The notes beneath the pieces are model-generated. The model ran no database searches, was not told where the DNA came from, and worked only from the letters and a program-made list of their open reading frames with translations. Positions 1,075-26,648 of a DNA stretch of 64,000 bases are shown here, in pieces (positions within the stretch are counted from its first letter, which is position 1; every line of letters begins with the position of its first letter). The translations under genes were made by a program, and so were the position numbers. The stretch lies in NCBI GenBank assembly GCA_963668095.1, contig OY764083.1, positions 1,201,085-1,265,084 of the forward strand. The letters are read 5' to 3'. The DNA is from Acidobacteriota bacterium (lineage in GTDB: Bacteria; Acidobacteriota; UBA6911; RPQK01; JAJDTT01).

Positions 1075-2658
1075 GTGCTGTCCCAAGCTGTTGACGGTCC
1101 CATGCCTGAGATCTCGGAAATCGACTACAAGCTGGGTCAGGACAACGTCCGGTTCCTCGGCCTCGACATCCACAATCCGGTCTTCGTCGTCTCCAGCCTC
1201 ACCATCATTGCATTCGTCGCCGGAGTGCTGGCCTTCCAGGCCGAGGCGGCGGTCGCCTTCGAGGCGCTGCGCGCGTGGCTCATTTCGACCTTCGACTGGG
1301 TGTTGATGGGCACTGGCAACCTCTTCGTGCTCTTCTGCCTGCTATTGCTGGTGACCCCGCCTGGCCGCGTGCGCCTGGGCGGCGCGGATGCCCGGCCGGA
1401 CTACTCCCGAACGGCCTGGTTCGCCATGCTGTTCGCCGCCGGAACGGGCATCGGCCTGATGTTCTTCGGGGTGGCAGAACCGGTGGAGCATTTCCTGCAA
1501 CCTCCGCTCGGCCTCGATGCGGGCGACACGGCGGCGGCGGCGCGCCTCGGCATGGCCAGCGCCATCTACCACTGGGGAGTCCATGGATGGGCCATGTACG
1601 CGGTAGTGGCGGTGGCGATCGCCTTCGCGTCGTATAACCTCGGCCTTCCGATGGCGCTGCGGTCGGCGTTCTATCCGCTCATGGGGGAGGCTGTGTGGGG
1701 CCGGTTCGGCCACGGCCTCGACACCCTTGCCGTCTTCGCCACGCTCTTTGGGCTGGCCACATCGCTCGGCCTGGGCGCAGAGCAGTTGTCGGCTGGTCTG
1801 GCCCACCTGTGGGGCACGCCGGCGACCGACACCACCCAGGTGCTCCTGATCATCGGAATCACCGGTATCGCGTTGGCGTCGGTGATCAGCGGCATGGAGA
1901 AGGGGGTCAAGCGTCTGAGCGAGGCCAACCTGCTGCTCGCCCTGTTGCTGCTGGTGTTCGTGCTGACGGTTGGCCCGACGCGCGCCATCGCCACTGGCGC
2001 CGTCACCAGCCTCGGCCAGTATCTCGCGTCGATCGGACCGCTCAGCAACTGGGTGGGCCGCGAGGATCTCGACTTCATGCACGGCTGGACAACCTTCTTC
2101 TGGGCCTGGTGGCTCTCGTGGTCTCCCTTCGTCGGCCTCTTCATCGCCCGGGTCTCGCGTGGCCGGACGGTGCGCGAACTGGTCGCCTGCATGCTGGTCA
2201 TTCCGACGCTGACCGCTACGATCTGGATGAATGCCTTCGGCGGAACTGCGCTGTCGCAGTATGTCGACCGCGGCCATCCCGACGTGATCGCGGCAGTACA
2301 GGCGCAGCAGCCGGAGATGGCGCTGTTCGCATTGCTGGAGACGCTGCCATTTGCGACCGTCACGTCGTTCATCGGCCTCGTGCTGGTGGCGGTGTTCTTT
2401 GTCACCTCCTCCGACTCCGGGTCACTGGTCATCGACACCATCACCGCCGGCGGCAAGCTGGACGCTCCGGTTGTCCAGCGCGTGTTCTGGTGCGTCTTCG
2501 AGGGGCTGATCGCCATCGCGCTCCTGCTCGGCGGCGGTCTTGTGGCCGCGCAGGCGGCCACGCTCGCCACCGCCCTCCCATTCGCACTGGTGCTGGTCGC
2601 CATGTGCTACAGCGCCTGGAAAGGCCTGCGCGCGAGCACGGCGGGCGGAGTCCGTTAA
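1075..2658 (+). CDS. BCCT family betaine/carnitine/choline transporter
   Basis: BCCT signature WTTFFWAWWLSWSPFVGLFIARVSRGRTVRE and about 12 hydrophobic segments. GTG start sits 1 nt after the upstream stop. Confidence 0.85.
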   Translation: MLSQAVDGPMPEISEIDYKLGQDNVRFLGLDIHNPVFVVSSLTIIAFVAGVLAFQAEAAVAFEALRAWLISTFDWVLMGTGNLFVLFCLLLLVTPPGRVRLGGADARPDYSRTAWFAMLFAAGTGIGLMFFGVAEPVEHFLQPPLGLDAGDTAAAARLGMASAIYHWGVHGWAMYAVVAVAIAFASYNLGLPMALRSAFYPLMGEAVWGRFGHGLDTLAVFATLFGLATSLGLGAEQLSAGLAHLWGTPATDTTQVLLIIGITGIALASVISGMEKGVKRLSEANLLLALLLLVFVLTVGPTRAIATGAVTSLGQYLASIGPLSNWVGREDLDFMHGWTTFFWAWWLSWSPFVGLFIARVSRGRTVRELVACMLVIPTLTATIWMNAFGGTALSQYVDRGHPDVIAAVQAQQPEMALFALLETLPFATVTSFIGLVLVAVFFVTSSDSGSLVIDTITAGGKLDAPVVQRVFWCVFEGLIAIALLLGGGLVAAQAATLATALPFALVLVAMCYSAWKGLRASTAGGVR

Positions 2659-2812
2659 ACCGGAGCTGGTTCAGATGGTGGATGGAGTCACGATCTGCGC
2701 ACCAACCGACCTGGATTGGTGCGGATTCGACAGATAGGCAAACCTCCGCAGCACGAGCCGCCGCGGGTTGTCCGGCGTCAGATTTGCTCTCGCCCGGTCG
2801 ATTCCGGCCGAA

Positions 2813-4273
2813 CTATCCCCACAGATCCAGCAACGGGGTTCCCTTCACCAACTCACGAGGCTGTTCCAGGTGGTTGAGGACCTCCATGTGCGGATCGATG
2901 CCTAAGCTGAAGTAGACGGATGCCAGCAGATCGTTGGGATGCACCGGCTTCTCCCTGGGTGAGGACCCGGTCTCGTCCGACTCTCCGTAGAGCGCACCGC
3001 GAGCGACGCCCGCACCCGCCACCAGGGCCGTGTAGCAATAGGGCCAGTGGTCGCGGCCGTCGGGAGCGTTGGTGTTCCCCGAGGTGCTCACGCCCAGGCG
3101 CGGCGACCGGCCGAACTCTCCCACCGTCACCACCAAGGTTTCCTCCAACAGTCCCCGGTCGTCCATGTCCTCCAGGAGCGCGGAGAGCGCCTGATCCAGG
3201 ACCGGACAATGCAGGTTCTTGAGGGGACCGAAGTTGGCGGCGTGCGTGTCCCAGGCCGTAGTTTCCGGGTTCCCGTTGGCCACGGACGGCCAGTTGAGCT
3301 GCACGAAACGGGTTCCGGCCTCCACCAGACGCCGGGCCATGAGAGCCCCTTGGCCGAAGGTCGTCCGCCCGTAGCGCTCCCGGACGGCAACCGGCTCTTG
3401 CTCCAGGTCGAAGGCGCCCCGGGCCTTGCCCGAGAGGACCAAGTCGTAGGCCCGCTCGTAGTACTCGTCGAGTGCGTACTGGCCCACGGCCTTCTCCAGG
3501 TCGGGCATGGACTTGTTGATCCCCTTCAACAGGGTGAAACGATCCTTCAACCGCTGGGGCGGGACTTCCTGCCGCAGCGACAGATCGTCGAGGCGGATCG
3601 GCTTGTTGGGATCCTGGTAGAGCCGGTAGGGATCGTAGGCCTTGCCCAGGAACCCGGCGGCTCCTCCCTTGCCCACCACGTTGGATTCCTGCAACGGACG
3701 CGGCATCTCCACGAAGGGCAGTACCGGTTCATCCAGCGGAAGCATCTTGGAGATGTGAGATCCCGCGGTCGGAAAATCGGCGGGGGAGGGCGGCTCCAAC
3801 TGGCCCGACGGCGAGACCCGATCAGGAGGATATCCGGTCAGCATCTGATAAATGGCCGCCGTGTGGTTGAACAGCCCCTTGGGCGTGTAGCTCATGGAGC
3901 GGATCAAGGTGCACTTGTCCACCTGCTGGGCCAGCTTGGGCATGGTTTCGCTGAGCCAGATTCCGGGGACCTTGCTCTTGATGGGCTTGAATTCGCCCCG
4001 AATGTTGGCCGGAGCGTCCGGCTTGGGATCCCAGATGTCGATGTGGCTGGGTCCGCCCTGGAGAAAAAGGAGGATCACGCTCTTGGCGGAGCCGAAGCCT
4101 TTGCTGGCCACCAGGTCGCCGGCGACCGCCGGCGTGGAGGCGGCTTGGGCGGCCTGCCAGGAGAGGAAATTGGGAAGGCCGAGACCGAAAAGGCCGATGG
4201 AGCCGACCCGCAAGAATTCCCGGCGCGTCGGACCGTCACAAAGAAATGCGCGATGACCTGGTACGACTAGCAT
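2813..4273 (-). CDS. DUF1501 domain protein (sulfatase-like fold, TAT-secreted)
   Basis: N-terminal twin-arginine motif [15 protein letters not shown] followed by [16 protein letters not shown], characteristic of DUF1501. It is paired with the upstream DUF1553 gene. Confidence 0.85.
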
Positions 4274-4382
4274 TCGATACCTCCGTGTTCAATAAAACCC
4301 GCTGGCACGACCGGTAGGGAGCCGGCCGTTGCGCTCCATTTTCTATTTTCGGCCCCCATCTTGCAACCTCACGCCGGTCCAC

Positions 4383-6899
4383 TCACCGATTGAAAAGAAA
4401 GGCGTTGCTGTTCAGCAGGGCCCAGAGCAGATCCTGGGCCGTCCCGGCCCGGCTGTCCCGCTCTTCGAACAGACGCGCAGCCGAGGCGTATTCGGGAGCC
4501 GTGGGCGGCCGGCTCAGGGTGGACAGGTAGAGATCCTCGATCAGTTCGCGGTCCGAGGCGCCTTTCAGAATCAGGGATGCGACCCGCCCCTCGGGGTTCG
4601 CCACGGCGCTACCCACAGTAGGACCGTTGACCAAATTCAACGCCTGGGAAAGGCTCATGTCGCTCTTGCGCTCGCACTCGCAGGGCTCGTCCCGCTGAGG
4701 CCGCCCGAAGAGGTCCAGAAACTCGCCGTTCTCCACGTGTGGATCGGGCAACTGCGCCGCGCGCGAGTCGTCGGGAACCGTTTCGAACTCGACCCGCGAG
4801 CCGGTCGCCGCGGAGATGGCGTCGGCCAGTTGCTCAGCGCTCAGGCGCCGCGGAATCCGGCGGGAGAAGTTGATGCCGTCGTTCTCATTCCAGGAGTTGG
4901 TCTGGATCGACGCCTGGTAGGTCCGGGACTCGACAATGGTCCGCATGAGATGTTGAAGATCGTAGTCGTGTTCCTTCAGATCCTGCGCCAAGGCATCCAA
5001 CAGGGGAGCGTTGACCGCCGGATTGGAGGCCCGGATGTCATCCACCGGTTCGATGATGCCCCGGCCGAAAAAATAGCTCCAGACACGGTTGGCCACCGCC
5101 CGCGCGAAGAAGGGGTTCTCCTTGGAGGTCAACCACTCCACCAGGGCCGGACGCTGGTCTCCCGCACCCTTGAGCGCGGGCGCTCCGTCGACGGGAACCA
5201 GATACTCGGGCTCCACGACGCTCCCATCCTTGGGATGTTTGAGCTCGGCGTCCTTGCGTTTCTCGTAGACGATCTCTTCTCCGCTCTTGAACCCGGGCCG
5301 GATTCCGATGGCGGAAAAGAAGGCCGCCATCTGAAAGTACTGGTCCTGGGTCCATCTCTCGAAGGGATGGTCGTGACACTGGGCGCAGACCATGCGGACT
5401 CCCAGGAACAACTGGGTGGTGGTCTCCATGGCATCCTGGGGAGTCCTCGCAACACGGAAGTAGTTGACGGCGGGGTTCTCTCCCGTGCTCCCCTTGGAGG
5501 CCAGCAGTTCCCGGACCAGCTCGTCATAGGGCTTGTTCTCGGCCACCGACTGCCGGATCCACTCCTGAAAGGACCAGATGCCCTTGTGCCCCAGGAACTT
5601 CCGGTTGTTGCGCAGGAGATCGCCCCACTTCAGGGTCCAGTGGTCGACATAGGCGTCACTGCCCAGAAGCCGGCCGATGGCTCGGGTGCGCTTCTCCTGC
5701 CTGTCGGCCGGATCCTCCAGGAAGGTCCGCACTTCCTCGGGCCGGGGCAGTCGCCCCGTCAGGTCCAATGTGACACGGCGAAGGAAATCGCTGTCCGACG
5801 CCGGGTGCGAAGGTTGCACCCGGATCCGCTCCAGTTTCCCGTCCACCAGGCGGTCGATGTAGTTGTATTGAGGCAGCGGTCGCCACTCGAAACCGGAACC
5901 GGGATTCAGAACAGTGACCGGGACCGTCACGAACGTTCCTTCGTAGCGGACCAGCAGGGCCCCCTCTCCGACCCGCTCGCCCTCCACCACCGCTCCCTCC
6001 GTCACCGCGATGGCCTCGGTGTTGCTGCTGCCCAGATGGGCCTCCCGGGTGACGTCCCGGAGGCTGCCGTCCACATATTCGGCCAGAACCACGACGCTCT
6101 GTTTCTGGCCGGGTGCGGTCAGGAAGACCTCCTCCGGCAGGACCTCCAGCCGCCGTACACGATCCGTCGACTCTTCGCCGAAGGGCACTCCATCGGTGAT
6201 CCACTGGAGGAGGGTGTCGTAGTAGGCGGAGTCCGGTTGCAGCATCAGGCCGCCCCCATGGGCGACCTGCTGGGTGGGCTTGGCCAGCATCAGGCTGCTG
6301 GCCGGATCGGCGCGATTGAATCGGCGGCCCGACATGTCGTAGAGGAGCGACTGGTAATCGAAGTGGGGATCGTAGCCCCGCAACGAGAGCTTGAAGCCGT
6401 TCTTCCCCTTGGCCGCACCGTGGCAGACGCCCTGAGTGCACCCCACCTTGTTGATGACCGGCAGAACGTCCTTCAGGAAAGTCGTCGGTTGTTCCCGGGC
6501 CGGTTCGATCCGAACCGGCAGATCCACACTGAGAACTCCAGCCGTGACCCGAAGCATCGTTTCCCCCGAATCCTTCGGGTGAAGGAAGCCTTGACCCTCA
6601 ACCTCCACCAAACCGGCCGGGTCATCGTAGCGGGCCTCTGCCGTCAGGTCCCGTTTTTCGCCCGTTTCCATGATCCCCGTAACCAGAATCCGTCTGGCGG
6701 AATCCGGCCCGGAAAAGACCAGGGGAGAGGGCTCGACCCGAATCTCCCGGAACGCTTGACCGGCCGCCGCAGGAGTTCCAGCACCGGGCACCGTGGCCGC
6801 CATCATGGCCCAGAGCACCCCGGCGAACGCGGCTCTCATCGGGATCAACTGCATCGATACGCGCATCGTGACCATAGACGCCCCCGATCCATTCCTCAT
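4383..6899 (-). CDS. DUF1549/DUF1553 (PSD1) domain protein with N-terminal Big-like domain
   Basis: CAQCHDHPFERWTQDQYFQMAAFF (DUF1553) and LLQWITDGVPFG (DUF1549) motifs. Signal peptide MRAAFAGVLWAMMAATVPGAG suggests the true start may be near 6839; the ORF start at 6899 overlaps the upstream stop by 4 nt. Confidence 0.85.
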   Translation of the reverse strand: MRNGSGASMVTMRVSMQLIPMRAAFAGVLWAMMAATVPGAGTPAAAGQAFREIRVEPSPLVFSGPDSARRILVTGIMETGEKRDLTAEARYDDPAGLVEVEGQGFLHPKDSGETMLRVTAGVLSVDLPVRIEPAREQPTTFLKDVLPVINKVGCTQGVCHGAAKGKNGFKLSLRGYDPHFDYQSLLYDMSGRRFNRADPASSLMLAKPTQQVAHGGGLMLQPDSAYYDTLLQWITDGVPFGEESTDRVRRLEVLPEEVFLTAPGQKQSVVVLAEYVDGSLRDVTREAHLGSSNTEAIAVTEGAVVEGERVGEGALLVRYEGTFVTVPVTVLNPGSGFEWRPLPQYNYIDRLVDGKLERIRVQPSHPASDSDFLRRVTLDLTGRLPRPEEVRTFLEDPADRQEKRTRAIGRLLGSDAYVDHWTLKWGDLLRNNRKFLGHKGIWSFQEWIRQSVAENKPYDELVRELLASKGSTGENPAVNYFRVARTPQDAMETTTQLFLGVRMVCAQCHDHPFERWTQDQYFQMAAFFSAIGIRPGFKSGEEIVYEKRKDAELKHPKDGSVVEPEYLVPVDGAPALKGAGDQRPALVEWLTSKENPFFARAVANRVWSYFFGRGIIEPVDDIRASNPAVNAPLLDALAQDLKEHDYDLQHLMRTIVESRTYQASIQTNSWNENDGINFSRRIPRRLSAEQLADAISAATGSRVEFETVPDDSRAAQLPDPHVENGEFLDLFGRPQRDEPCECERKSDMSLSQALNLVNGPTVGSAVANPEGRVASLILKGASDRELIEDLYLSTLSRPPTAPEYASAARLFEERDSRAGTAQDLLWALLNSNAFLFNR

Positions 6900-9328
6900 T
6901 CCTTCGTCCGGAGAGATGCCACGCCCGTATCGTCCTCCTGCGGCACCTGGGCGGCGACGACCAGACGGGTGGCCACCGACGGAATTCGATAGGGAACCTG
7001 CGTTTCCGTCCGGGTGGCCAGAGTCGAGGACGAGGACAACTCCATGGCGTACTCACCCGGCTGAACCGATTCCCCGGCGGTGCAGGGGATCTGAAACTCC
7101 TCCTGATCCAGGCCCACCTGAACCGGCTCGCAAAGAACGCCGTTGGGGAAATTCTCGGGTTGAACGTTTACCGGCCGGTCGAATAGTGGATCGCGTTCGA
7201 CCCGGCCCCGCAAATGCCCGCTCCCCCCCGCCTGGAGCGTCAGACCTGTTTCCTCCACGCGGATGTGGTAGCCCTGCACCACGTCGAAGGTCAGGGCGCG
7301 GCTCCGGATCGTCTGCTTCCGTCCCCGGACCTCCACTTCCCCCTCCGCCAGAAAGTTGAACTTTCCATGGACCGTGCCCATTGTGGTGGCCACCACAATG
7401 GCGCCGGTGCCCGGTTCATCCTCCCCCTTCACGGCCCGAATCCGCAGTTCGCGGGTGATTGCCCTATTGGTCTTGAGCGTCCCCGGCAGAGTCACCGCGG
7501 GATCCGCGGCCACCATGCGCCAGGTCACGCGCTGGTCCATGCCCGGCAGCAGGCGCTCCGAAGTCACTCCGGCCAATTCCAGGCGACCGGGGACCTCCGG
7601 GCTCACGTTCACCGGCACTCCAAGACCCAGCCAAGGAGCCGTAAAAGGTTCTTCACGCATCCGCATGGAGGGTTCCGGCAAACCCGTTCCGGGCTTCACC
7701 GAGGTGATCAGGCCCGGCGCCCGGGCCCAACGTTCGATCCGGGTGCCGTCGGGCAAGACGGCCGTTCCCCGGACCGAGATCCGGCGTACTCCCAGGGAGG
7801 CTCCGCTCTTGGCCGTGACGGTCAGAATCCCGGGAGCGGAGCGGAAGGGACTCTCGGGAGCCACCAATTCGGGAGGCACCTCACCCCCCTCCACCAGCAG
7901 ATCGTCTCCCGCATCCGGGATCTCCAAACGGACGGCGCCGGCATACCCCCGTCGATCGATCCTGGCTTCGATCCATGCGGTTCCATTTCGAGGCACGTTC
8001 AGGTACGGAGTCGACACGGAGACGGTGAAATCGGCGGCACCCTTCCAGGCCGAAAGCCGGTAGGCGTAATCCGGCCCGCCACGGCCCACCAGGTCTTCCA
8101 CGGTGAGGATCACCTCTCGCGCCCCATCGGGGACCTTGAAATTCAGATGGGGGTCGCGGCTGACGGTGCCGTGAGTCCGGAACGAGTCGTTCCTCAAGGG
8201 GACCTGATCGCCTCCCGAGGCCAGGAGTTTCCCCTGGGAATCCAGGACCGAAATCCGGCCGAAGAGACGCGTCGTGCCCAATCGAGACCCGGCCAGGTGA
8301 ACCGACCATTCCTCTCCCGGTGCAACTTGGAGCCGGTAGCGATCCACTTCACCGGGCGCCGAGATCCGTCCGTTGACCACCGTGGAGGGCTCCAGCACTC
8401 CCAAAGGCTGGTCTTCCGGCTCCAGCCGCTCGGGAAGATCGCCCACCACGAAGGGCAGCGGAAGCGCGCCCGGCGATCCGGGGGCCTGCAGCATCACGAA
8501 TTCCCGGTCCACGCCCGACAGGTCCAAAGAAATCTCCCGGGCACCGGCGGGGCTTCCACCGACCACTTGGACCTTGATTTCTTCGCCTCTTTGCCAACCC
8601 AGGGGGAACAACCCCTGGGCGTAGTCGAAGGCGCCGATCTTGAGCCGATAGAAATTCTGATCCTGGCGGCTGAACCGGGCGTCGTGGACCACCGCATAGT
8701 AGTCGCCTTCGGCCAGCGAAAGATCGAGGCGCGAATCGACGCCGATCCCGGGGGCGTCATCGTTTCTGGCGACCTGTTTTCCCTGGGAATCGAGGACCAG
8801 AAGCACGGGGTCCAGAGCCGAGGCGACCCGGCGGCCCTCCACCTCCAGCACGACCCTCTCCCCTTCCCGCGTCCGGAACCGATAGACGTCCCGGTCCGGT
8901 CCCTCCAAAGTCCCGTTCACCGTCACCGGGACCGGGACTGGCTGGCTTCCCGCAGGAGTGTCGTTGGATCCTTCCTTCTCTTCGTTGACTTCGGGAAACT
9001 CACCCACGGAGAAGAGCAGAAGGTTGGAAATCCCCTGGTCGCTGTGGACGCGAATAGAGTAGAGGCCGGGGGCCGCGTCCTTCCGGACCTCCACCAGAAA
9101 GGCCGCCGATTCCACGTCCTGGGCCGGGGCGTCCGGGGCCTGGGCTGCCAGCGGGGTGAAACTTGCCGGAAGCGAAGAGAGGATCTTCAGATTCCCGCCC
9201 AGACTCTTGCCCGATAGGGTCAGAGTCACGGCCGACCCCTTTCGGGCGCCCGGGGGATGCAGCTGTTCCAACAACGGGGCTTCAGCCACCAAAAAAGATC
9301 CACAGAGCAGGCACAGCAACGCCGTCAT
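6896..9328 (-). CDS. large secreted protein with repeated pre-peptidase C-terminal (PPC)-like domains
   Basis: Repeated segments of the form DVYRFRTREGERVVLEVEG...DPVLLVLDSQGKQVARNDD and DVDRYRLQVAPGEEWSVHLAG...ISVLDSQGKLLAS. The signal peptide MTALLCLLCGSFLVAEA supports a start near 9328 (ORF maximum 9388). Confidence 0.55.
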   Translation of the reverse strand: MTALLCLLCGSFLVAEAPLLEQLHPPGARKGSAVTLTLSGKSLGGNLKILSSLPASFTPLAAQAPDAPAQDVESAAFLVEVRKDAAPGLYSIRVHSDQGISNLLLFSVGEFPEVNEEKEGSNDTPAGSQPVPVPVTVNGTLEGPDRDVYRFRTREGERVVLEVEGRRVASALDPVLLVLDSQGKQVARNDDAPGIGVDSRLDLSLAEGDYYAVVHDARFSRQDQNFYRLKIGAFDYAQGLFPLGWQRGEEIKVQVVGGSPAGAREISLDLSGVDREFVMLQAPGSPGALPLPFVVGDLPERLEPEDQPLGVLEPSTVVNGRISAPGEVDRYRLQVAPGEEWSVHLAGSRLGTTRLFGRISVLDSQGKLLASGGDQVPLRNDSFRTHGTVSRDPHLNFKVPDGAREVILTVEDLVGRGGPDYAYRLSAWKGAADFTVSVSTPYLNVPRNGTAWIEARIDRRGYAGAVRLEIPDAGDDLLVEGGEVPPELVAPESPFRSAPGILTVTAKSGASLGVRRISVRGTAVLPDGTRIERWARAPGLITSVKPGTGLPEPSMRMREEPFTAPWLGLGVPVNVSPEVPGRLELAGVTSERLLPGMDQRVTWRMVAADPAVTLPGTLKTNRAITRELRIRAVKGEDEPGTGAIVVATTMGTVHGKFNFLAEGEVEVRGRKQTIRSRALTFDVVQGYHIRVEETGLTLQAGGSGHLRGRVERDPLFDRPVNVQPENFPNGVLCEPVQVGLDQEEFQIPCTAGESVQPGEYAMELSSSSTLATRTETQVPYRIPSVATRLVVAAQVPQEDDTGVASLRTKE

Positions 9329-9448
9329 TCCGTGGGTTCGGAGTCCTGCTCGATGGAAGGGACCAGATTCGTTCATGACTGCGTCCACGAAATTGGCGTA
9401 CCGTTGGTTTGCGCTCAGTCTACACCCGCCCAGTGTCAGAATCCCGGG

Positions 9449-10828
9449 CTACCGGGACGAGACCAGCGTCTCCTGAATCGGCACCGGGATGAACTCGGAT
9501 ACGGTCCGGCCCGAATCCAACTCGCAGATTCTCACGGTACCGTCAAAGCCACCCATGGCCAGCCGGTCGCCATCCGGATGAAAAGCCACGGCGTAAACCC
9601 CTTGGTGGCCGGCGTCGCAGACTCCCGAGTCCGCACCGCTCTCCACGTCGTACAGGGGCACCCGGCTCGAGGCGCCGGACACGGCCAGCGTCCTGCCGTC
9701 CGGACTGAAGGCCAGATCGAAAATCTCGCCGTCCTGCTTCTCCAACTCATGGAGCAGGTTCGTGTTGTCCGCGATCAACATCTTGGCGGCCTTGTCCACC
9801 CGGTAGAGAAAGGGCGTCCGATCCTCGCCGCCGATGGCGACGGTCTCACGGCTAGGATGCCGGGCAATGGCGGTCAACTCTCCCTTCAGGAGATTGACGT
9901 TCTCGATAAAGGCTCCGCTGGTGGCATCCACCAGCTTGGCCGCCCGGTCCCGGCCCACTGAAATGACACGCTTGCCGTCCACCCCGAAAACGGTGCCCAG
10001 GACCCAGTTCTCGTGATGACTCATCTTGAGCAATTCTTTGCCCGTGGCGATTTCCATGATCCGGACCGTGTGATCGGCGCAGCCGAAGGCCACCCGGGTC
10101 CCGTCTGGAGAAAGCGACGCCCCGAAGAGCGTGTCGTGGCAACTCCGCACAGCCCTCAAGAGGCTTCCGGAGTCCACGTCCCAGAATTGGACCTCTCCGA
10201 AGCTGGCCGGCCGCCCCCCGGCCGCCATGAGGGTCTTGCCGTCTGCGGTAAAACCCAGGGACTGAATCCGGTCGGCGGTCCCCACCAGCCGGACATCGGG
10301 TTCCGAGTCCGAATCCGTGTGCAGCAGCACTTCGCGGTAGCCGGAAACCGCCAGCGTGCCGCCATCTGGAGAGTAGGCCAACGCGGTGATGACGGGCGGC
10401 TGCCGGTACACGGGCGGCTTGCCGCCGGCCAGGCGGGTGGCCATCTCCGAGGAGTCGTCCCGGGCCCCCGACGCGATCCATTTCCGGAAGAGTTCGATAT
10501 CGGAAGCATCCAGGGGCGGCTGACCCAACGGCATCCGCGGTTCCCGGTCCCCGGTAAGGTGGTCCAGGAGGAGGCTCGTGTCCGGTGCTCCCGCGGCGAA
10601 GGTAGCTCCATGCTGACCGCCGGTCCGGAGATTCTCGATATTGGTGACGTCCAGTCCGCCCTGACGGCTGGAAGGCTGGTGACACCCCTGGCAACTGCGT
10701 TGAAGCAGAGGCTGGATGTCCTGAGAGTAGCTGACAGCCTCAGCCGGATTCTCCCCTGCTTCGGTCCCTCCGAAGAGGCCGGTTGCCGACAGGACAGCAA
10801 TACTCAGAAAGGCAGATAAAAGAGTCAT
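9449..10828 (-). CDS. Planctomycete-type cytochrome c (PSCyt1) domain + WD40 repeat protein
   Basis: LLQRSCQGCHQPSSRQGGLDV heme-binding CxxCH motif in a PSCyt1-like context, followed by multiple WD40-like repeats. Signal peptide MTLLSAFLSIAVLSATG puts the start near 10828 (ORF maximum 10936). Confidence 0.7.
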   Translation of the reverse strand: MTLLSAFLSIAVLSATGLFGGTEAGENPAEAVSYSQDIQPLLQRSCQGCHQPSSRQGGLDVTNIENLRTGGQHGATFAAGAPDTSLLLDHLTGDREPRMPLGQPPLDASDIELFRKWIASGARDDSSEMATRLAGGKPPVYRQPPVITALAYSPDGGTLAVSGYREVLLHTDSDSEPDVRLVGTADRIQSLGFTADGKTLMAAGGRPASFGEVQFWDVDSGSLLRAVRSCHDTLFGASLSPDGTRVAFGCADHTVRIMEIATGKELLKMSHHENWVLGTVFGVDGKRVISVGRDRAAKLVDATSGAFIENVNLLKGELTAIARHPSRETVAIGGEDRTPFLYRVDKAAKMLIADNTNLLHELEKQDGEIFDLAFSPDGRTLAVSGASSRVPLYDVESGADSGVCDAGHQGVYAVAFHPDGDRLAMGGFDGTVRICELDSGRTVSEFIPVPIQETLVSSR

Positions 10829-11001
10829 TTCGCGCGTTCCGCCATCATAGGATGAGGGTTGCGCAGCGGTCAAGAATGGGCCGGTGTAAGAAAGAGGATA
10901 AGGAGGAAAGAGAAAAGAGTGAAGACAGGGGCACATTCTACGCGTAGCGGACGTGGCCGGGGAGAGACTCTCTTTTCTTTTTCCTCTTCTCCGTTTCCTC
11001 G

Positions 11002-13845
11002 CTACTCGGCGCTCGGAGCGTTTTTTTCAGGATTCAGCACGCCCATGACGTAGAGCTCGGGATTCAGGTATTCCCGTAGCGTTTCCCGCATGCGGTCGGA
11101 GGTGACGCTCTCGACCAGGGGTTGGTAGTCCAGGATGAGGCGGGGGTCGGTCCCGTAGCGATAATGGCCGGCCAGCCGGTTCAGCCAGAAGCCGTTGCGT
11201 TTCAGGGACACTTCCCGGGAACGGAGCTGGCCTTCCCGGACCTTGACCAGGATCTCGTCGTCCACACCGTGCTCCCGGATCTTCTCGATCTCGTCGAGGG
11301 CGGCCTTCACCAGCTGATCCACGTTCTCGGGAGCGCAGCCGAAGGAGATGGTGAAGGTGTACGACTCGGAGGGCCGGCGGCGCATTCGGCTCCGGACCCG
11401 GACGCCGTAGGTGCCTCCCAGATCCTCTCGGAGCACCTCCCGCAGGCGGATGCTCAAGACCCGCGCCAGGGACGTGACGTCGTGCTGGCTCTGGCGGCTC
11501 CACCCGGCTTCGCCCAGGAACTGGATATGGACCCGGCTCTTGGGCTCGAGCCCTTTCTTCACCTCGAAACGGACCACTTCCTTCGGCGATTGGACGCCCA
11601 CGTCCCGCCATTTCTCCTCACGCCGGCTGGAGGGCAACCCGCCAAGATAGGTGAGCAGAGGTCCCCGGAGAGTTTCCAGATCCAGATTTCCCACCAGGAC
11701 GAAGGTGAAATCGCCGGCGTCATGAAACCGCTCCCGGTAGATCTCCAGCGCCTTTTCCGGGTCCATCCGGCCCAGGCTCTCTTCCGTGGGTGGCCGCCGC
11801 CGGAGATGATTCCGGCTCAGCACTTCCTGGAGCCGGTCGCCGAAAACGGCCTGGGGCATGACCAGTCGGTTGCGCACCGATTCCAGGGCGTTGGCCTTCC
11901 ACGCGGCGATGGCATCCGGGTCCAGGCGCGGAGCGGTCAGACGAAGGTAGACCAGTTGGAGCATGGTCTCCAGGTCCTGGGGCGATGCCCGCCCCCGCAC
12001 CGTTTCCTCCAGTTCGAAGATAGAGGTGGAGACCCGGACCACCTTGCCGGCCAGGGCCTTTTCCAACTCCACGGCGCTGAAGCCTCCCGCTCCGCCCGCC
12101 CCGACCACCGAGTCGGCATACAGGGCCGACGGGTAGTCCTGGTCGGAGGCCAGGGAATGGCCTCCCGGGCTGAAACCGGAAAGCAAAATCTCGTCGTTCT
12201 TGAAGTCGGTTGGCTTCAGGATCACCCGAATCCCGTTGGAGAGCTTCCAGACCGTGACCCCCAGCTCCGGGACCCGGGATTCCTCGGCGATGCGACCGGC
12301 CGCGGGCGGCTTGGGCACCAGAGGCCCGGCCTTGGCCTGGTCCTCATAGGCCTCGACCTTCCGGTCGCCACGGTCCATCAGGGCCAGAAGCGCCTCTTGC
12401 TTGGGAACCTGCGTCCCCTCCAGGGCGGTGACCGTCACGACCCGGTTTCCCGGCCGGCCCCACTCCCCAGCCACGGCATTCAGATCGTCGGCGTCGATTC
12501 CGGGAAGCAGCTCCTTCAGCAACTTCAGCTCATAGTCGATCCCGGGCATTCCCTCACCGACCAGGAAGTGCCGCAGGATCTCCGAGGTGTAGCGCCGCGA
12601 CCGGACCTTGTCCTTCTCCCGGGCGCTGGTCTCGTAGCCGCGCAGCATCTCCCTCTTGACCCGGTCCAGCTCCGAGGGCTGGAAACCATGGACGGTGGCC
12701 CGCTCCACCTCGGTCAGGAGGGTCTCCATGCTCTCGGCGATCCGGTCCTGCTTGGCCATGGCCGCCTGGACCAGGATGTCGGCGGACCGGACCATGGAAC
12801 GAACGGTCTGAGACATGGAAAAGCGGAACGGAGCGGTGGCGGTGCGCCGTTTTTCCTCCAAGCGGGCGTTGAGCATGGCGTGGAACAAGCGTTCGATCAC
12901 CATCTGCCGGTAGGCGGCCCGGCTGTTCTGGGGCAACGTGGGCAGCTTCTTGAGTAGAGAGACGGAGGTGCCGGGAACCTCGGGGTCGGTGACGATGCTG
13001 ACCAGCGTCTCCTCATGAGGCGGAACCGGATGAACGACCCGGGAACGAGGATTTTCCGGCCCCTTCAGATCACTGAAACGCTCCCGAATCGCTGTTTCCA
13101 CCTGTTTGCCGTCGAAGTCTCCCACGGCGATGACCGCCATCAGGCCGGGCCGATACCAGTCTCGGTAAAAGCGCTTCAGGTCCTTCGGCTGGGCCGACTT
13201 CAGGACCTCCTCAGTGCCGATGGGAAGCCGATTTGCATACCGGGACCCCTTGAATATGACCGGAAACTGCTGGTCCCGGATCCGCGACTGCGCTCCCAGG
13301 CTGGCGCGCCTCTCCTCCAGGACCACACCCCGTTCCTTCTCCACCTCCTCCGGGTCCAGGACGATCCCTTGCGCCCATTCATGGAGAATCAAGAAGGCCT
13401 TCTCCATGTATTCGGGGTTGTCCGTGGGAACCTCCAACATGTAGACCGTCTCGTCGAACGAGGTGTAGGCGTTGATGTCGGGGCCGAACCGCATCCCGAT
13501 GGTCTCCAGATAGTCCACGATCTCCTGCTTCTCGAACCGGCGCGTGCCGTTGAAGGCCATGTGCTCCAGGAAGTGGGCCAGACCCTGCTGATCGTCGTCT
13601 TCCTGCATGGACCCGGCGTTGACCGCCAGCCAGAGGGCCATCCGCTTCTCCGGTTGCCGGTGGACCCGGACGAAGTAGCTGAGACCGTTTTCCAACCGCC
13701 CCTTGGTGATGGCCGGGTCCAGTGGCAGCGCGTCGGAGGCCGTTGACTGATGCGTTTCCAGAGCCAGAACGGGGGCGGACCCCAGACCGCCCGCCAGCAG
13801 CCAGAACGCCAGAATCCAGACGATGCGCCGCGACCTGCAGATCAT
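11002..13845 (-). CDS. M16 (pitrilysin/insulinase) family zinc peptidase, tandem two-unit form
   Basis: HxxEH zinc motif in LAHFLEHMAFNGT. The ~950-aa length fits fused active and inactive M16 halves. Signal peptide MICRSRRIVWILAFWLLAGG supports a start at ~13845 rather than the ORF maximum 13968, which removes the overlap with the upstream GNAT gene. Confidence 0.85.
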   Translation of the reverse strand: MICRSRRIVWILAFWLLAGGLGSAPVLALETHQSTASDALPLDPAITKGRLENGLSYFVRVHRQPEKRMALWLAVNAGSMQEDDDQQGLAHFLEHMAFNGTRRFEKQEIVDYLETIGMRFGPDINAYTSFDETVYMLEVPTDNPEYMEKAFLILHEWAQGIVLDPEEVEKERGVVLEERRASLGAQSRIRDQQFPVIFKGSRYANRLPIGTEEVLKSAQPKDLKRFYRDWYRPGLMAVIAVGDFDGKQVETAIRERFSDLKGPENPRSRVVHPVPPHEETLVSIVTDPEVPGTSVSLLKKLPTLPQNSRAAYRQMVIERLFHAMLNARLEEKRRTATAPFRFSMSQTVRSMVRSADILVQAAMAKQDRIAESMETLLTEVERATVHGFQPSELDRVKREMLRGYETSAREKDKVRSRRYTSEILRHFLVGEGMPGIDYELKLLKELLPGIDADDLNAVAGEWGRPGNRVVTVTALEGTQVPKQEALLALMDRGDRKVEAYEDQAKAGPLVPKPPAAGRIAEESRVPELGVTVWKLSNGIRVILKPTDFKNDEILLSGFSPGGHSLASDQDYPSALYADSVVGAGGAGGFSAVELEKALAGKVVRVSTSIFELEETVRGRASPQDLETMLQLVYLRLTAPRLDPDAIAAWKANALESVRNRLVMPQAVFGDRLQEVLSRNHLRRRPPTEESLGRMDPEKALEIYRERFHDAGDFTFVLVGNLDLETLRGPLLTYLGGLPSSRREEKWRDVGVQSPKEVVRFEVKKGLEPKSRVHIQFLGEAGWSRQSQHDVTSLARVLSIRLREVLREDLGGTYGVRVRSRMRRRPSESYTFTISFGCAPENVDQLVKAALDEIEKIREHGVDDEILVKVREGQLRSREVSLKRNGFWLNRLAGHYRYGTDPRLILDYQPLVESVTSDRMRETLREYLNPELYVMGVLNPEKNAPSAE

Positions 13846-13870
13846 GGAAATCCTCCTCCTCGGCAACCCT

Positions 13871-18009: not shown

Positions 18010-21000
18010 ATGTGGACCGCAAATCACAGGACCGTGATCGCAATCTGTGTATTTTGCCTGATGGGTGCCGGCTCGGCGTTGTTGGCTCAGGGACACCGGG
18101 CCATTATCTCGGGCCTAGTGGTCGACGCGAGTGGCGCCAGTGTCCCGGGAGCCGAGGTGAGGGTCATCCATCAATCCACCAACATTGCCCACAATACGAT
18201 TACCAGCGACAGCGGTTACTATGAGGCTCCGGGACTGCTGCCCGGCCAGTACCGGATTGAGGCCGCACTCGAGGGTTTCAAGACCACCGTGGTCGAGGAC
18301 ATACCCGTCGCCAGCAACGAGCGGGTGCGGGTTGACCTCAGTCTCGACGTAGGGGAGGTCGAAGACAGCGTGACTGTGACCTCCGATCCCACGCTTCTCC
18401 AGTCGGCGGATGCCGATCTGGGCGTCGCCTTTGGGCAGAAGCCGCTGACTTCCCTGCCCATCGGCCAGGGAAACCCCACTTATCTGTTCCTGCTTTCACC
18501 CTCGGCCGACTCGGCTGCAGGGTACGGCAACTTCAGTATGAACCAGGAGCCCTACCAGCGGGCTGGATCCGGTCTGGTCCGGTTCAACGGAATGCCGACG
18601 GGAACTGCCGAGTTCACGATGGACGGAACTCCCAACACGCAGCGGAACAACGCTGTCGACGGGGGCGCCGTTTCATTTAATGCGACCACGGAACTGGTGA
18701 AGGAAGTGCGCATCCAAACCACGACCTTCGATGCCAGTGTGGGGCATACCGGCAGCACCACCGTTGACGTCATCATGAAAACGGGCACCAATGACTATCA
18801 CGGTGAGGCCTTTTACTTCGGGCGCCATGACATGTTCAACGCGAACAGTTGGGTCCGTAACAGGGCGGGACAGGAGAGAAGCAGTTTTCCCTACAAGCGC
18901 TTCGGTTTTACCGGAGGAGGTCCGGTTTTCAAGGACAAGACCTTCTTTTTTCTGGGCTGGACCCATTGGGAACAGGTCAGGTTCGGTGATTCTCAGGCCA
19001 CCGTACCCAGCGCGGCAAACAAGTCCGGCGACTTTTCGGGCCTGCTGGCACTGGGCCCCGAGTATCAGCTCTACGACCCGATGACCGCGGTTCTGAACGA
19101 GGCGGGGCGAGTCGAGCGCCAACCCTTCCCCAACAACATCATTCCATCGAGTCGCATCCACCCGATTGCGGCACCCCTCCTCGGGTTCTTCCTGGCTCCC
19201 AACAATCCGAGTGGGGCGAGTCCGGACGGCTTTCGCAACTATCTTTACGACAAAGGCTATACCCCGCTTCCCAGAACGGACCGGCACACGGTTCTTCGAA
19301 TCGACCATGACTTGAACGAATCGCACACATTATTCGGCAGGTATCTCAATTCAGACGGTCCTTCCAGCGGGTGGACCATGTTTGACAACCACCCCGGAGG
19401 TCCGGGCTGCGAGTGCGTCGACGTGCACGGTACGCGACACCAGATTTGGAATTTCTCGGTCGGCGACGTCTGGACCATCAACCCGACTTTCGTGGCCGAC
19501 TTTCGCGCCACCAACAATCGGCATACCTCAAAGGCCCGGAACAACGCGGGCGGACTGAGCTGGGCGGATCTCCCCACCAACATGTCCCAGTTTGTTGATG
19601 TCGAGTTTACGGGTTTTCCCTATGTTTCAATCACCGGTTACCCCAAACTGAGTAACCTTCCCGGTGGCCACAACGGGTTTACCAATTTCGATCCGGGCCT
19701 GCAGGTCGATGAGATTCGAAGCGCCTCCGCCCACTTCACCCAGATTTCGGGGAACCACAGTTTCAGGTTCGGGGCCGACTGGAGGGGCTATGTCTACAAC
19801 TCGGTTCGAAGCGATCAAGCCCGAACTTTCTTCACGGGTCAATTTTCCAGTGGTCCCTTCGACAACTCCCCGTCCCCCCCGCGGGGCCACGGTCTGGCAG
19901 ACTTCCTGCTGGGCCTCCATTCCTCCACCAACCGGAACGTACGTGCGGATTATGCGAATTATTCCACCTATACAGGCATCTATCTCCAAGACGACTGGAA
20001 AGTCACACCCAGACTCACCTTGAACCTCGGGCTCCGGTGGGAGCGCGAAGGTCCCCCCACCGAGATGCATGACCAGGCACTGACACGATGGGCGGCCGAC
20101 GTGGAGAATCCTGTCTCGGCAGCGGTCCAGGCAAATTATGCCAAGAACCCGATTCAGGAAATCCCGGCGGATCAGTTTCGGCTGATGGGAGGCGTGCTCT
20201 TTGCCGGAGTTGATGGAGAACCCCGCACCGTCTACGACTCTGACAACAACAACTTTTCTCCGCGGACCGGCGCGGCCTACCGCTTGAACGACAACACGGT
20301 CCTGAAAGGCGGCTACTCGCGTACTTTCATCCCCCTCAACCAGCGTCACTTCGCTGCCCGTTTTCCGATTGCCGGATTCGACACGAGCACATTCGCCTTT
20401 TCCAGCACCGACGGAGGCTTGACCTTTCCAGGCTCTCTGGACGATCTCTTCCCGGGTGGCTTGAACCAACCCAGGGGGTCCAGCGATGGACTGATGACCA
20501 ATCTGGGCCAGCTCATCTGGATGAACCACGGGCTCGATCGAAGTACCACAAACCCCTATGCTCACCAGTTTCAGTTGGGCATCCAGCGCAGATTGTCGCC
20601 CAACGCCACCCTGGAAGTGCGCTATGTGGGGAACCGGACGAGGGACTTCGGCATTTCCAACAACGACCATAACCGGCTGCCGGGGCAGTACTTGACCAGA
20701 TCGATAGAGCGGGACCAGGCCCATATCGACTACCTGACGGAGCGGGTCCCGAATCCGTTCCAGGGAGTCGAGGGTGTGGGTGGCTCTCTGGGAGTGGCGT
20801 CGACCATCCAACGCCAGGCTTTGCTGCGACCCTATCCCCATATTACCGGGCTTCGCTCGTGGGCCGACAAGGTAGGCTCGACCGACTACGATGCCATGCA
20901 GGTAGAATTCCGGGCCCAGGACCTTGGGGGCTGGGACGTTCAGAGCAGTTACACCTGGGGTAAGACCATGGAGGAGCTGCAGTTTCTCAATGGTTTCGGA

Positions 21001-21576
21001 ATTGACCCGGGGCCGGAAAGGACGATCGGCATCAACGACCGTCCCCATGTCCTTCGCTTTGCGGGCACCTTCAGCTTCCCCTTCGGCAAGGGCCAGCGTT
21101 TTGGACCAAAGTCGGGCCTTGCCAGTCACCTGATCAGTGGGTGGAGTGCAACCTTCATTGGGTTCGCGCAGAGTGGAATCCCCATGAAATGGGGGAATAT
21201 TATTTTCCGGGGCAACATCAGGAACATCTCGGTTGGCCAGCATGAGGCGACCCGAATGTTCAACCAGAATGCCGGTTTTGAGAGGAGCTCCGCCAAACAG
21301 CCCGCCTACAATCTGCGCACCTTTCCCCTTCGTCTTTCCGGGGTCCGGGATCAGGCGCCCACGGACGTGGGTTTGACTCTTGTCAAGAACACTTACATCG
21401 GCGAGCGGTTTCAGGCCCAGTTTCGGTTGGAAGCCTACAATCTCCTCAATTCGCACTACTTCTGGGGCGCCCACCGCAACGCGGTCAATACGAACCCCAC
21501 GAGCAGCGGGTTTGGGACGCAAGGCTTCTCCTCGGGTCCGCGAATCGTCCAGTTTGGCGTGAAGTTCATTTTCTGA
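18010..21576 (+). CDS. TonB-dependent receptor-like outer-membrane protein with N-terminal carboxypeptidase-regulatory-like domain
   Basis: Signal peptide. The CarboxypepD_reg-like start (ISGLVVDASGASVPGAEVRVIHQSTNIAHNTITSDSGYYEAPGLLPGQYRIEA) and a ~1000-aa beta-rich body ending in a C-terminal aromatic residue (…GVKFIF) are typical of this family in Acidobacteria. Confidence 0.8.
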   Translation: MWTANHRTVIAICVFCLMGAGSALLAQGHRAIISGLVVDASGASVPGAEVRVIHQSTNIAHNTITSDSGYYEAPGLLPGQYRIEAALEGFKTTVVEDIPVASNERVRVDLSLDVGEVEDSVTVTSDPTLLQSADADLGVAFGQKPLTSLPIGQGNPTYLFLLSPSADSAAGYGNFSMNQEPYQRAGSGLVRFNGMPTGTAEFTMDGTPNTQRNNAVDGGAVSFNATTELVKEVRIQTTTFDASVGHTGSTTVDVIMKTGTNDYHGEAFYFGRHDMFNANSWVRNRAGQERSSFPYKRFGFTGGGPVFKDKTFFFLGWTHWEQVRFGDSQATVPSAANKSGDFSGLLALGPEYQLYDPMTAVLNEAGRVERQPFPNNIIPSSRIHPIAAPLLGFFLAPNNPSGASPDGFRNYLYDKGYTPLPRTDRHTVLRIDHDLNESHTLFGRYLNSDGPSSGWTMFDNHPGGPGCECVDVHGTRHQIWNFSVGDVWTINPTFVADFRATNNRHTSKARNNAGGLSWADLPTNMSQFVDVEFTGFPYVSITGYPKLSNLPGGHNGFTNFDPGLQVDEIRSASAHFTQISGNHSFRFGADWRGYVYNSVRSDQARTFFTGQFSSGPFDNSPSPPRGHGLADFLLGLHSSTNRNVRADYANYSTYTGIYLQDDWKVTPRLTLNLGLRWEREGPPTEMHDQALTRWAADVENPVSAAVQANYAKNPIQEIPADQFRLMGGVLFAGVDGEPRTVYDSDNNNFSPRTGAAYRLNDNTVLKGGYSRTFIPLNQRHFAARFPIAGFDTSTFAFSSTDGGLTFPGSLDDLFPGGLNQPRGSSDGLMTNLGQLIWMNHGLDRSTTNPYAHQFQLGIQRRLSPNATLEVRYVGNRTRDFGISNNDHNRLPGQYLTRSIERDQAHIDYLTERVPNPFQGVEGVGGSLGVASTIQRQALLRPYPHITGLRSWADKVGSTDYDAMQVEFRAQDLGGWDVQSSYTWGKTMEELQFLNGFGIDPGPERTIGINDRPHVLRFAGTFSFPFGKGQRFGPKSGLASHLISGWSATFIGFAQSGIPMKWGNIIFRGNIRNISVGQHEATRMFNQNAGFERSSAKQPAYNLRTFPLRLSGVRDQAPTDVGLTLVKNTYIGERFQAQFRLEAYNLLNSHYFWGAHRNAVNTNPTSSGFGTQGFSSGPRIVQFGVKFIF

Positions 21577-23413: not shown

Positions 23414-23473
23414 AAGGGCCTCCGGCAAGAAGTCCGGGCGGTAGGTGCGTTGCGTTCCAAGCCGCGAGCAGAG

Positions 23474-25117: not shown

Positions 25118-25388
25118 TCGCGCGGCCTTCAACAGGATCTCCATTTCGACGGTTGGACCATCGACAGTATACCTCTCCACCCTGTCCGGTCCCGAACTCC
25201 GGATCAGAAGTTCCGTCGAAGCAGTTGCTCTTTCGACGGGGATATGAACCAGATGGTGACCGTCTGGTTTTGAAACCATTCCTCAGGTAGCTTGGTGGGG
25301 CCGCGTGACGGAAGGTTTCCTGCCATGCTGTACTCTTTTCCAATCCGCTCGATGAATTCACCTGCCAGAAACTACAAGGGAAACATCC

Positions 25389-26468: not shown

Positions 26469-26648
26469 TCAAGCAGCCCGTGGTGAAAGTCTCGCGAGCA
26501 CCGAGACCGTTCCTGCGCCCGCCGGACAAGGCGCGATGAGGGAGCATACCGGGAGTATGTGACCGAGTCGCAACGCAGTCCGCCGGGATGCAGGGGCGGT
26601 CGAATGCCGTGACGACTTTTGCCACGGGCTGCAAGGGTATGGGACTCG

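Follow-up and report, generated by a model that had tools for sequence, protein, structure and literature searches.

A 64,000-nucleotide (nt) stretch of contig OY764083.1 from an Acidobacteriota bacterium, referred to as a whole as the window, carries on its minus strand four adjacent and co-directional genes, designated here g1 to g4, which encode a PSCyt1 cytochrome fused to a WD40 beta-propeller, an exported beta-sandwich protein with PPC-like domains, a PSCyt2-PSD1 (DUF1549/DUF1553) protein and a DUF1501 protein. These genes very probably represent the Acidobacteriota copy of a known four-gene module, and a functional unit. The module has been on record since 2012, together with the idea of its participation in electron transport, as the "most complex" four-gene DUF1501 cluster of the Planctomycetes-Verrucomicrobia-Chlamydiae (PVC) superphylum (Kamneva et al., 2012; Genome Biol Evol 4:1375; PMC3542564). 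The window is hence a correct re-discovery and no new kind of system, the architecture having been described and electron transport having been suggested in that work. The increments provided by the present analysis are strict synteny across the Acidobacteriota, a conservation gradient among the four products, an invariant CX4CH variant of the heme motif and evidence that speaks against the proposed link to PVC cell compartmentalization. With modest confidence, we take as the best overall explanation that the four exported proteins assemble as a periplasmic, heme-linked metallo-hydrolase complex.

The four open reading frames (ORFs) are located at 9449..10936 (g1), 6896..9388 (g2), 4383..6899 (g3) and 2813..4273 (g4). 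The start of g1 is most likely the ATG at 10828 (9449..10828; 459 residues), because the 36 codons upstream of it are unconserved in 43 homologs and the signal peptide begins at this position, and g2 probably starts at the ATG at 9328 (6896..9328; 810 residues). The longest ORF of g3 encodes 838 residues, and g4 encodes 486 residues with a Pfam match to DUF1501 (E=4.9e-103). The DNA has a G+C content of about 65% and also presents long ORFs on the plus strand (e.g., 4329..6992 and 7214..9217), which are antisense shadows typical of DNA of this composition; the minus-strand reading is taken as real because the Pfam matches and the homologs belong to the minus-strand set, to which the Pfam scan and the homolog search were confined. 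A preliminary description of the locus had recognized four adjacent, co-directional genes of these families, as the ORFs and Pfam matches bear out, and had extended the cluster to position 10936, which is correct for the g1 ORF but not for its likely start. The same description had portrayed the g2 product as a giant protein built from PPC-like repeats; with 810-830 residues the protein is not giant, and the repeat architecture holds for two PPC-like domains but not for the whole protein, some 380 residues of which have no assignable family.

Conservation of the arrangement was analyzed through a genome scan, with one genome per species, that yielded 285 stretches encoding relatives of g2. Synteny was assessed on the best 78 of these loci, all of them labelled Acidobacteriota except for two from a single metagenome-assembled genome (MAG) labelled Acidimicrobiia. 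The order g1-g2-g3-g4 is strictly colinear in 32 of the 78 loci, and 25 of these 32 belong to distant Acidobacteriota. When ORFs are clustered independently of the gene coordinates used here, g1 precedes g2 in 50 loci, g2 precedes g3 in 46 and g3 precedes g4 in 36, with no conserved neighbor besides the four genes, and longest-ORF calls yield median gaps of 23 nt (g1-g2), 2 nt (g2-g3) and 80 nt (g3-g4). On the chromosome of one Acidobacteriota MAG (locus L001; OZ246889.1), the g2 product is 99% identical to that of the window, and third-party gene calls and Pfam annotation for another locus (L079) show the same four-gene arrangement. The extended operon proposed in the preliminary description is therefore supported by the synteny check, the four-gene order being kept beyond this genome and the same families being found, rearranged, in remote lineages. 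Furthermore, the median identity to the window in the 25 distant loci decreases from 81% for g4 to 63% for g3, 56% for g1 and 44% for g2. This gradient, with g4 far above the remaining products, fits a catalytic core accompanied by a more freely evolving scaffold and points to the DUF1501 protein as the putative catalytic core. The conservation of g4 is at the level that we would expect of core housekeeping proteins. The two loci from the MAG labelled "uncultured Acidimicrobiia bacterium" (MFD00962.bin.1.329; L027 and L073) are typical of the Acidobacteriota, with g4 products 74-81% identical, and this MAG is probably mislabelled or contaminated.

The spacing of the genes and the sequences around them suggest that g1 to g4 most likely share one transcript, which would start from a promoter located just upstream of g1, where a promoter-like site (TTGACC-18-TATGAT; 10873..10844, minus strand) matches 10 of 12 positions. 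Within the cluster, the coding strand shows no terminator-like sites. The gap between g1 and g2 amounts to 60 nt with the GTG start of g2 or 120 nt with its ATG start, and that between g3 and g4 to 109 nt. The g2 stop and the longest-ORF start of g3 overlap in the ATGA at 6896..6899, and this 4-nt overlap, already pointed out in the preliminary description, is present in the sequence and, at the longest-ORF start of g3, in five of seven close relatives; the true start of g3 is nonetheless uncertain. It could be any of the in-frame alternatives M9, M12, M16 and M21, the last of which directly precedes the hydrophobic core and would change the g2-g3 spacing from -4 nt to about +56 nt, and the g3 start of distant relatives is found 7-12 nt past the g2 stop. 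Upstream of its ATG, g4 has a GGAGG ribosome-binding site. The spacer between g3 and g4 (4274-4382) contains a 12-nt block, GAGGTTGCAAGA, that is identical in seven close relatives, and a hairpin that is likewise kept in these seven relatives, without covariation (no compensatory changes are seen) and without an Rfam match.

All four products appear to be exported. Hydrophobic segments are restricted to the N-termini of the four proteins, with no internal membrane helices, and the products are for this reason regarded as soluble exported proteins, with predicted Sec-type signal peptides on g1, g2 and g3 and a predicted twin-arginine (Tat) signal on g4. Three heme-type motifs are distributed over two of these proteins: the CxxCH of g1, the CX4CH of g3 and the CxxCH of the PSCyt2 domain of g3. 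In g1, Pfam reports PSCyt1 (35.8 bits; gathering score 22) and many WD40 propeller families, and a CQGCH heme c attachment motif (10679..10693, minus strand) lies at the start of the PSCyt1 match. The CxxCH is present in 43 of 43 homologs (CQGCH in 41, CQACH and CAGCH in one each), and the methionine of a downstream "P.MP.G" segment is conserved in the same set. A single CxxCH, a conserved methionine and a Sec-type signal without twin arginine are together typical of class I c-type cytochromes, and heme binding is accordingly a prediction for g1. The best match of the propeller among solved structures is the WD40 protein 2ymu (E=1.5e-69). A propeller of the pyrroloquinoline quinone (PQQ) type was considered and rejected, the propeller being of the true WD40 type, and no PQQ families occur among the 25 best Pfam matches of g1. 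The propeller families among these matches are of the WD40 type, which does not agree with a cofactor-propeller enzyme based on PQQ or heme d1.

The g3 product combines Big_2 immunoglobulin-like (Ig) domains, found by sequence and fold searches of the PDB, with three cysteine motifs. Its order of domains is Big_2, PSCyt1-like, Big_2, PSCyt2 and PSD1, and the last two are assigned by Pfam with E=1.4e-51 (DUF1549; 5307..5858, minus strand) and E=3.4e-45 (DUF1553; 4473..5153, minus strand). The PSCyt1-like domain between the Big_2 domains (6156..6506, minus strand) carries a CX4CH motif (GCxxGxCHG) at 6420-6440, residues 154-160, and shares homology with the g1 PSCyt1 domain (hhalign 92%, E=6.6e-7), although the Pfam PSCyt1 model does not match it. 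The PDB sequence search with g3 returned Big_2 only. The CX4CH motif is present in 120 of 120 homologs and also in distant paralogs. The CxxCH of the PSCyt2 domain (CAQCHDHPFE in the window, with the CxxCH at 5373-5387) is present in 120 of 120 orthologs, whose invariant motif reads CxQCHDHPFE, and in each of the five paralogs that were compared, and a CECER motif in the PSD1 domain (4674-4682) occurs in 120 of 120 orthologs but is missing from most paralogs. Mature g3 contains no cysteines other than the six of these three invariant motifs. A joint four-cysteine site is argued against by the fact that the CxxCH is always kept in paralogs whereas CECER is often lost. One g3 paralog shows a canonical CLSCH at its N-terminus where others have CX4CH, a position established by inference and not by alignment, and a conserved "VAHGGG" segment lies in g3 roughly at the position of the PSCyt1 methionine ligand, which hints at bis-histidine ligation in the PSCyt1-like domain. 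The AlphaFold2 model of g3 has a mean predicted local distance difference test (pLDDT) value of 78 and a predicted template-modelling score of 0.81, and pLDDT values fall below 50 at the three cysteine motifs and at a conserved His-Gly-Gly loop (residues 134-155, 184-196, 485-491 and 697-727, numbered from M21). Low model confidence at the cysteine motifs within confident surroundings would be consistent with sites whose order depends on a cofactor.

The only Pfam match of g2 is to PPC, which is weak for the entire protein (23.1 bits; gathering score 25.9) and rises to 26.7 bits in a scan of the N-terminal third by itself, defining a first PPC-like domain at residues 116-240 (8609..8983, minus strand). 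The second PPC-like domain (residues 301-432; 8033..8428, minus strand) has no Pfam match of its own and was identified by its similarity to the first (hhalign 88-92%). Self-comparison of g2 with hhalign reveals an internal duplication, with 92% for the two PPC-like domains and 64% for the two Ig-like modules, such that the protein is laid out as two units of a short, beta-rich Ig-like module and a PPC-like domain, followed by the C-terminal region that lacks a family. A profile search of the PDB with g2 returned only a sub-threshold match to the collagen-binding (PPC) domains of collagenases, and the PDB sequence searches as a whole, with g2, g3 and g4, yielded no clue to function. Mature g2 has two cysteines, C733 and C749, both of them invariant, and the g2 family comprises 3,236 representatives (50% clustering) at E<=1e-30.

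Members of this family also occur with other partners. In Bryobacterales loci (L059-L064 and L076) the order is g1-g2-g3-g2', with a second PPC protein in the usual place of DUF1501 and no adjacent orthologous DUF1501 gene. In further loci (L009:7097-12394 and likewise L010, L011 and L013), g2 paralogs directly follow the genes for a PQQ-dependent dehydrogenase and for a cytochrome c in which CxxCH occurs twice, and g2 paralogs do so as well in L059-L064, about 0.4-0.9 kb downstream of g2'. The cytochrome c and PQQ dehydrogenase beside g2 paralogs are a split version of the fused cytochrome and propeller of g1, and a second periplasmic redox context for the family. In locus L084 (5285-9718), a distant member of the g2 family is followed by a gene for a PhoD-like phosphatase, without a PSD1/DUF1501 pair, which suggests that the PPC scaffold can partner other exported metallo-hydrolases.

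The g4 product is distinguished by its Tat signal and by a putative hydrolase fold. Its twin-arginine motif (TRREFL; 4211-4228, minus strand) is shared, as [ST]RRx[FL][LM], by 148 of 153 homologs. No sequence homologs of g4 were found in the PDB even at E<=1, and a profile search gave sub-threshold matches to sulfatases and LtaS over a strand that contains the Asp-His/Asn metal-binding pair of sulfatases, with an EFG of DUF1501 aligned at the position of the sulfatase DHG/DNG. The predicted first strand of g4 ends in "GG", whereas that of sulfatases ends in "DD". The formylglycine motif [CS]x[PA]xR is absent from g4 and is not conserved anywhere in the 153 homologs, and the identification of g4 as a classical (type I, formylglycine) sulfatase was rejected for lack of this motif. 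Thirteen polar residues (S76, D79, D82, K84, R125, H137, D342, H344, E386, R389, R407, D408 and H409) are invariant even when paralogs of 28-39% identity are included, and these residues look like those of a putative metal-hydrolase site. The structure model of g4 is poor (pLDDT 57) because the alignment available to it, made of homologs that are all at least 74% identical, lacked diversity. The top 50 Foldseek matches of this model all belong to the alkaline-phosphatase superfamily, are mostly sulfatases, and include sulfatases, sulfamidase, LtaS and phosphonate monoester hydrolase, with weak TM-scores of 0.27-0.38. These matches would place g4 in the alkaline-phosphatase superfamily, a tentative statement of fold class from a low-confidence model.

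In the complex that we favor, the four proteins would assemble in the periplasm, with g4 as the catalytic subunit. This subunit would be a metalloenzyme of the alkaline-phosphatase superfamily, folded and probably loaded with metal in the cytoplasm, and it would act with the helical PSCyt2-PSD1 domain of g3 as its obligate partner. As many as three sites for c-type heme, namely the CxxCH/Met site of g1, the PSCyt1-like CX4CH site of g3 and the PSCyt2 CxxCH site, might form a short electron relay between the catalytic unit and the respiratory chain, and periplasmic attachment of heme would accord with the export of g1 and g3 by Sec. Scaffolding, for docking or for substrate binding, would be provided by the WD40 propeller of g1, the Big_2 domains of g3 and the Ig and PPC modules of g2. 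Redox chemistry had been suggested in the preliminary description from the presence of a heme protein in the operon. The suggestion is plausible and the heme-type motifs are invariant, but its basis lies in motifs only, it is not original and it did not require the additional cytochrome gene, because the DUF1549 domain of the pair itself has an invariant CxxCH (120/120) and g3 also has the CX4CH. That redox chemistry is central to the module is thus a serious possibility, which we stop short of affirming.

Several considerations weigh against a complex of this kind, and particularly against its redox component. No report of an experimental function, of heme detection or of a structure was found in the literature on PSCyt domains and DUF1501. 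The alkaline-phosphatase superfamily is composed of hydrolases and transferases and has no redox enzymes, and the only enzyme-like component of the cluster, the DUF1501 protein, has by its model a hydrolase fold and not that of an oxidoreductase. Moreover, the low confidence of the g4 model and the weakness of its fold matches limit g4 to a statement of fold class, and the geometry of the heme sites is not given by the g3 model because AlphaFold2 confidence is lowest at the cysteine motifs. Foldseek searches of the PDB with g3 return only Ig domains, and its helical PSCyt2-PSD1 domain of about 490 residues is without a solved relative. As for transcription, the region 2500..11300 yields a single sigma-70-like match, the site upstream of g1, against 0.8 expected by chance, and its position alone is suggestive; co-transcription is read from spacing and synteny only, and the 109-nt gap between g3 and g4 could accommodate an internal promoter.

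Part of this evidence would also agree with a hydrolytic module for nutrient acquisition devoid of redox chemistry, which we consider unlikely. The DUF1501 protein would then be an esterase of the sulfatase or phosphatase type, the products of g1 to g3 would only bind or present a polymeric or complex organic substrate, and the CxxCH and CX4CH motifs would hold a structural metal or disulfides. The sole enzyme-like fold in the cluster is indeed that of an alkaline-phosphatase-superfamily hydrolase, PPC and Big_2 typically serve secreted hydrolases as binding modules, a distant g2 relative lies beside a PhoD-like phosphatase, and heme has never been demonstrated for PSCyt domains in the literature. 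Furthermore, a survey of PSCyt architectures in the Verrucomicrobia, which also described conserved neighbor genes of unknown function, reported that PSCyt genes often encode carbohydrate-binding modules and lie near sulfatase genes, mirroring glycoside hydrolase genes, and suggested a carbohydrate-related role (He et al., 2017; PMC5615132). In the window, however, Pfam detects no carbohydrate-binding module in the four products, and g4 lacks the formylglycine motif of sulfatases. The 81% identity of g4 in distant lineages suggests one fixed substrate rather than diverse polymers. On the side of the heme motifs, the PSCyt1 match of g1 is above the gathering score, its CxxCH and distal methionine are conserved in all 43 homologs, and the histidine of every cysteine motif is invariant, which disulfides would not need.

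A bolder extension of the heme-linked complex is that the module represents an unrecognized type of periplasmic redox enzyme, in which DUF1501 and PSCyt2-PSD1 are jointly catalytic and are linked to the respiratory chain by a three-heme relay that includes the unusual, invariant CX4CH site, with the four-gene form being ancestral or housekeeping and the paralogous pairs, present in dozens per genome, being derived from it. We regard this extension as possible but doubtful. If it were true, the single-copy module, with its 81%-conserved g4, would be the best entry point to the function of one of the largest unannotated families of gene pairs in soil and aquatic bacteria.

The unity of the module can itself be questioned, as g2-g1 and g3-g4 might be two independent systems that are merely side by side in the Acidobacteriota. 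A Planctomycetota contig carries only a g2-like gene followed by a PSCyt1-WD40 gene, that is, g2-g1 without g3-g4; g2 is found alone or with other partners; and the 109-nt gap, the largest in the cluster, falls precisely between g3 and g4. On the other hand, further contigs have g2-PSD1-DUF1501 or g2-PSD1, with g3 or g3-g4 directly after g2 in other lineages, and the 2-23 nt gaps and the start/stop overlaps tie g1, g2 and g3 to each other. Locus L081 (2157-10298) brings together all four families, at 27-40% identity, in a different order, as two divergent pairs that consist of DUF1501 with the cytochrome-WD40 protein and of the PSD1 protein with a g2-like protein, and it keeps the CxxCH, CX4CH, CECER and Tat motifs. 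The four-gene cluster has also been reported in PVC genomes (PMC3542564). Because the same families re-associate in different orders in distant lineages, their linkage is deemed functional and not merely inherited, and an accidental juxtaposition of two systems is improbable. A second, deeply diverged module type, with a DUF1501 protein only about 36-38% identical to g4, is observed in L079 (14431-18481) and in L081 (2157-10298); in L079 it is convergent to the canonical module.

It is very improbable that the role of the module is to build or serve intracellular membranes or some other structure of the envelope. Interaction domains (WD40, Ig and PPC) are indeed plentiful in the proteins, but all four are soluble, exported and without membrane anchors, the enzyme fold at 81% identity and the heme motifs point to catalysis, and the module abounds in the Acidobacteriota (the label of all but two of the best 78 of 285 stretches that encode g2 relatives), which to our knowledge are not known for such intracellular compartments. 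A role of this kind was proposed on the basis of a correlation (r = 0.852) between the four-gene cluster and intracellular membranes in compartmentalized PVC species (Kamneva et al., 2012; PMC3542564), a tie that the Acidobacteriota distribution does not support and that the abundance of the module in this phylum weakens.

The surroundings of the cluster differ from the module in their conservation. The upstream neighbor on the same strand encodes an M16 peptidase of 988 residues (11002-13968), which was rejected as a member of the module since it adjoins the cluster in the seven closest relatives only, and the downstream neighbor is a convergent gene for a BCCT transporter. No second copy of g1, g2, g3 or g4 occurs within the window, no Rfam families were found anywhere in it, and a scan against NCBIfam gave no useful match. 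Elsewhere in the window, the region 21737-28217 contains four long ORFs, at 21737..23413 (plus strand), 23474..25279 (minus), 25389..26468 (plus) and 26649..28217 (minus), none of which has a Pfam match at E<=1e-5; they are flanked by the genes for an outer-membrane beta-barrel of 1188 residues with a CarboxypepD_reg domain (18010..21576) and for a Laminin_G_3 protein (28299..30431).

Several known systems provide a frame for these observations. Fusions of a cytochrome c to a propeller are familiar from cytochrome cd1 nitrite reductase and from the quinohemoprotein alcohol dehydrogenases. The g1 product likewise joins a small class I cytochrome c to a beta-propeller and is exported, but the true WD40 propeller that it contains belongs to a scaffold type for which no cofactor site is known. 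The hydrolases of the alkaline-phosphatase superfamily make up all of the top 50 fold matches of g4, which nevertheless does not carry a formylglycine motif. In the Proteobacteria, a Tat-exported DUF1501 protein is encoded beside a DUF1800 protein in a predicted operon (PMC5122149). Export of DUF1501 through the Tat pathway is common to both arrangements, but the partner family differs and no cytochrome motifs have been reported for DUF1800; homology between PSD1 and DUF1800 was considered and found to be unsupported (E=0.06), and this pair is regarded as a lead only.

The closest counterpart is the cluster of Kamneva et al. (2012; PMC3542564), which consists of a twin-arginine DUF1501 protein, a signal-peptide protein with weak PPC and uncharacterized conserved regions, a PSCyt1/Big_2/PSCyt2/PSD1 protein and a PSCyt1/WD40 protein, and for which membrane targeting and electron transport were proposed. 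The four products of the window match this description item by item, each of the four defining members being present, with the qualification that the PSCyt1 domain of g3 is recognized by hhalign only, has CX4CH in place of CxxCH and is missed by Pfam. The arrangement, which the preliminary description had taken for an unusual extension of the DUF1501 and PSD1 pair, was hence already published as a four-gene cluster. The host differs, being an Acidobacteriota here, whereas the 2012 report centered on the Planctomycetes, Verrucomicrobia and Lentisphaerae.

Lastly, g3 and g4, which lie side by side in the same direction and of which the DUF1501 product bears a Tat signal, constitute a pair of the generic PSCyt2-PSD1 and DUF1501 type, and paralogous pairs occur in the same loci. 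Proteins with DUF1501 and with DUF1549/DUF1553 reach tens of copies per genome in the Planctomycetes, as illustrated by the 41 copies each of the PSD1 and PSCyt2 domains in Rhodopirellula baltica (PMC2754498), and they are common in the Verrucomicrobia and Acidobacteria, groups with a major role in degradation in both soil and water. Compared to the generic pair, the window has two extra partners, g1 and g2, without carbohydrate-binding modules, and its g4 keeps about 81% identity in distant lineages, versus about 30-38% to paralogs. The four-gene version is the most conserved and best-defined form of this abundant gene pair, and hence a sensible target for biochemistry.

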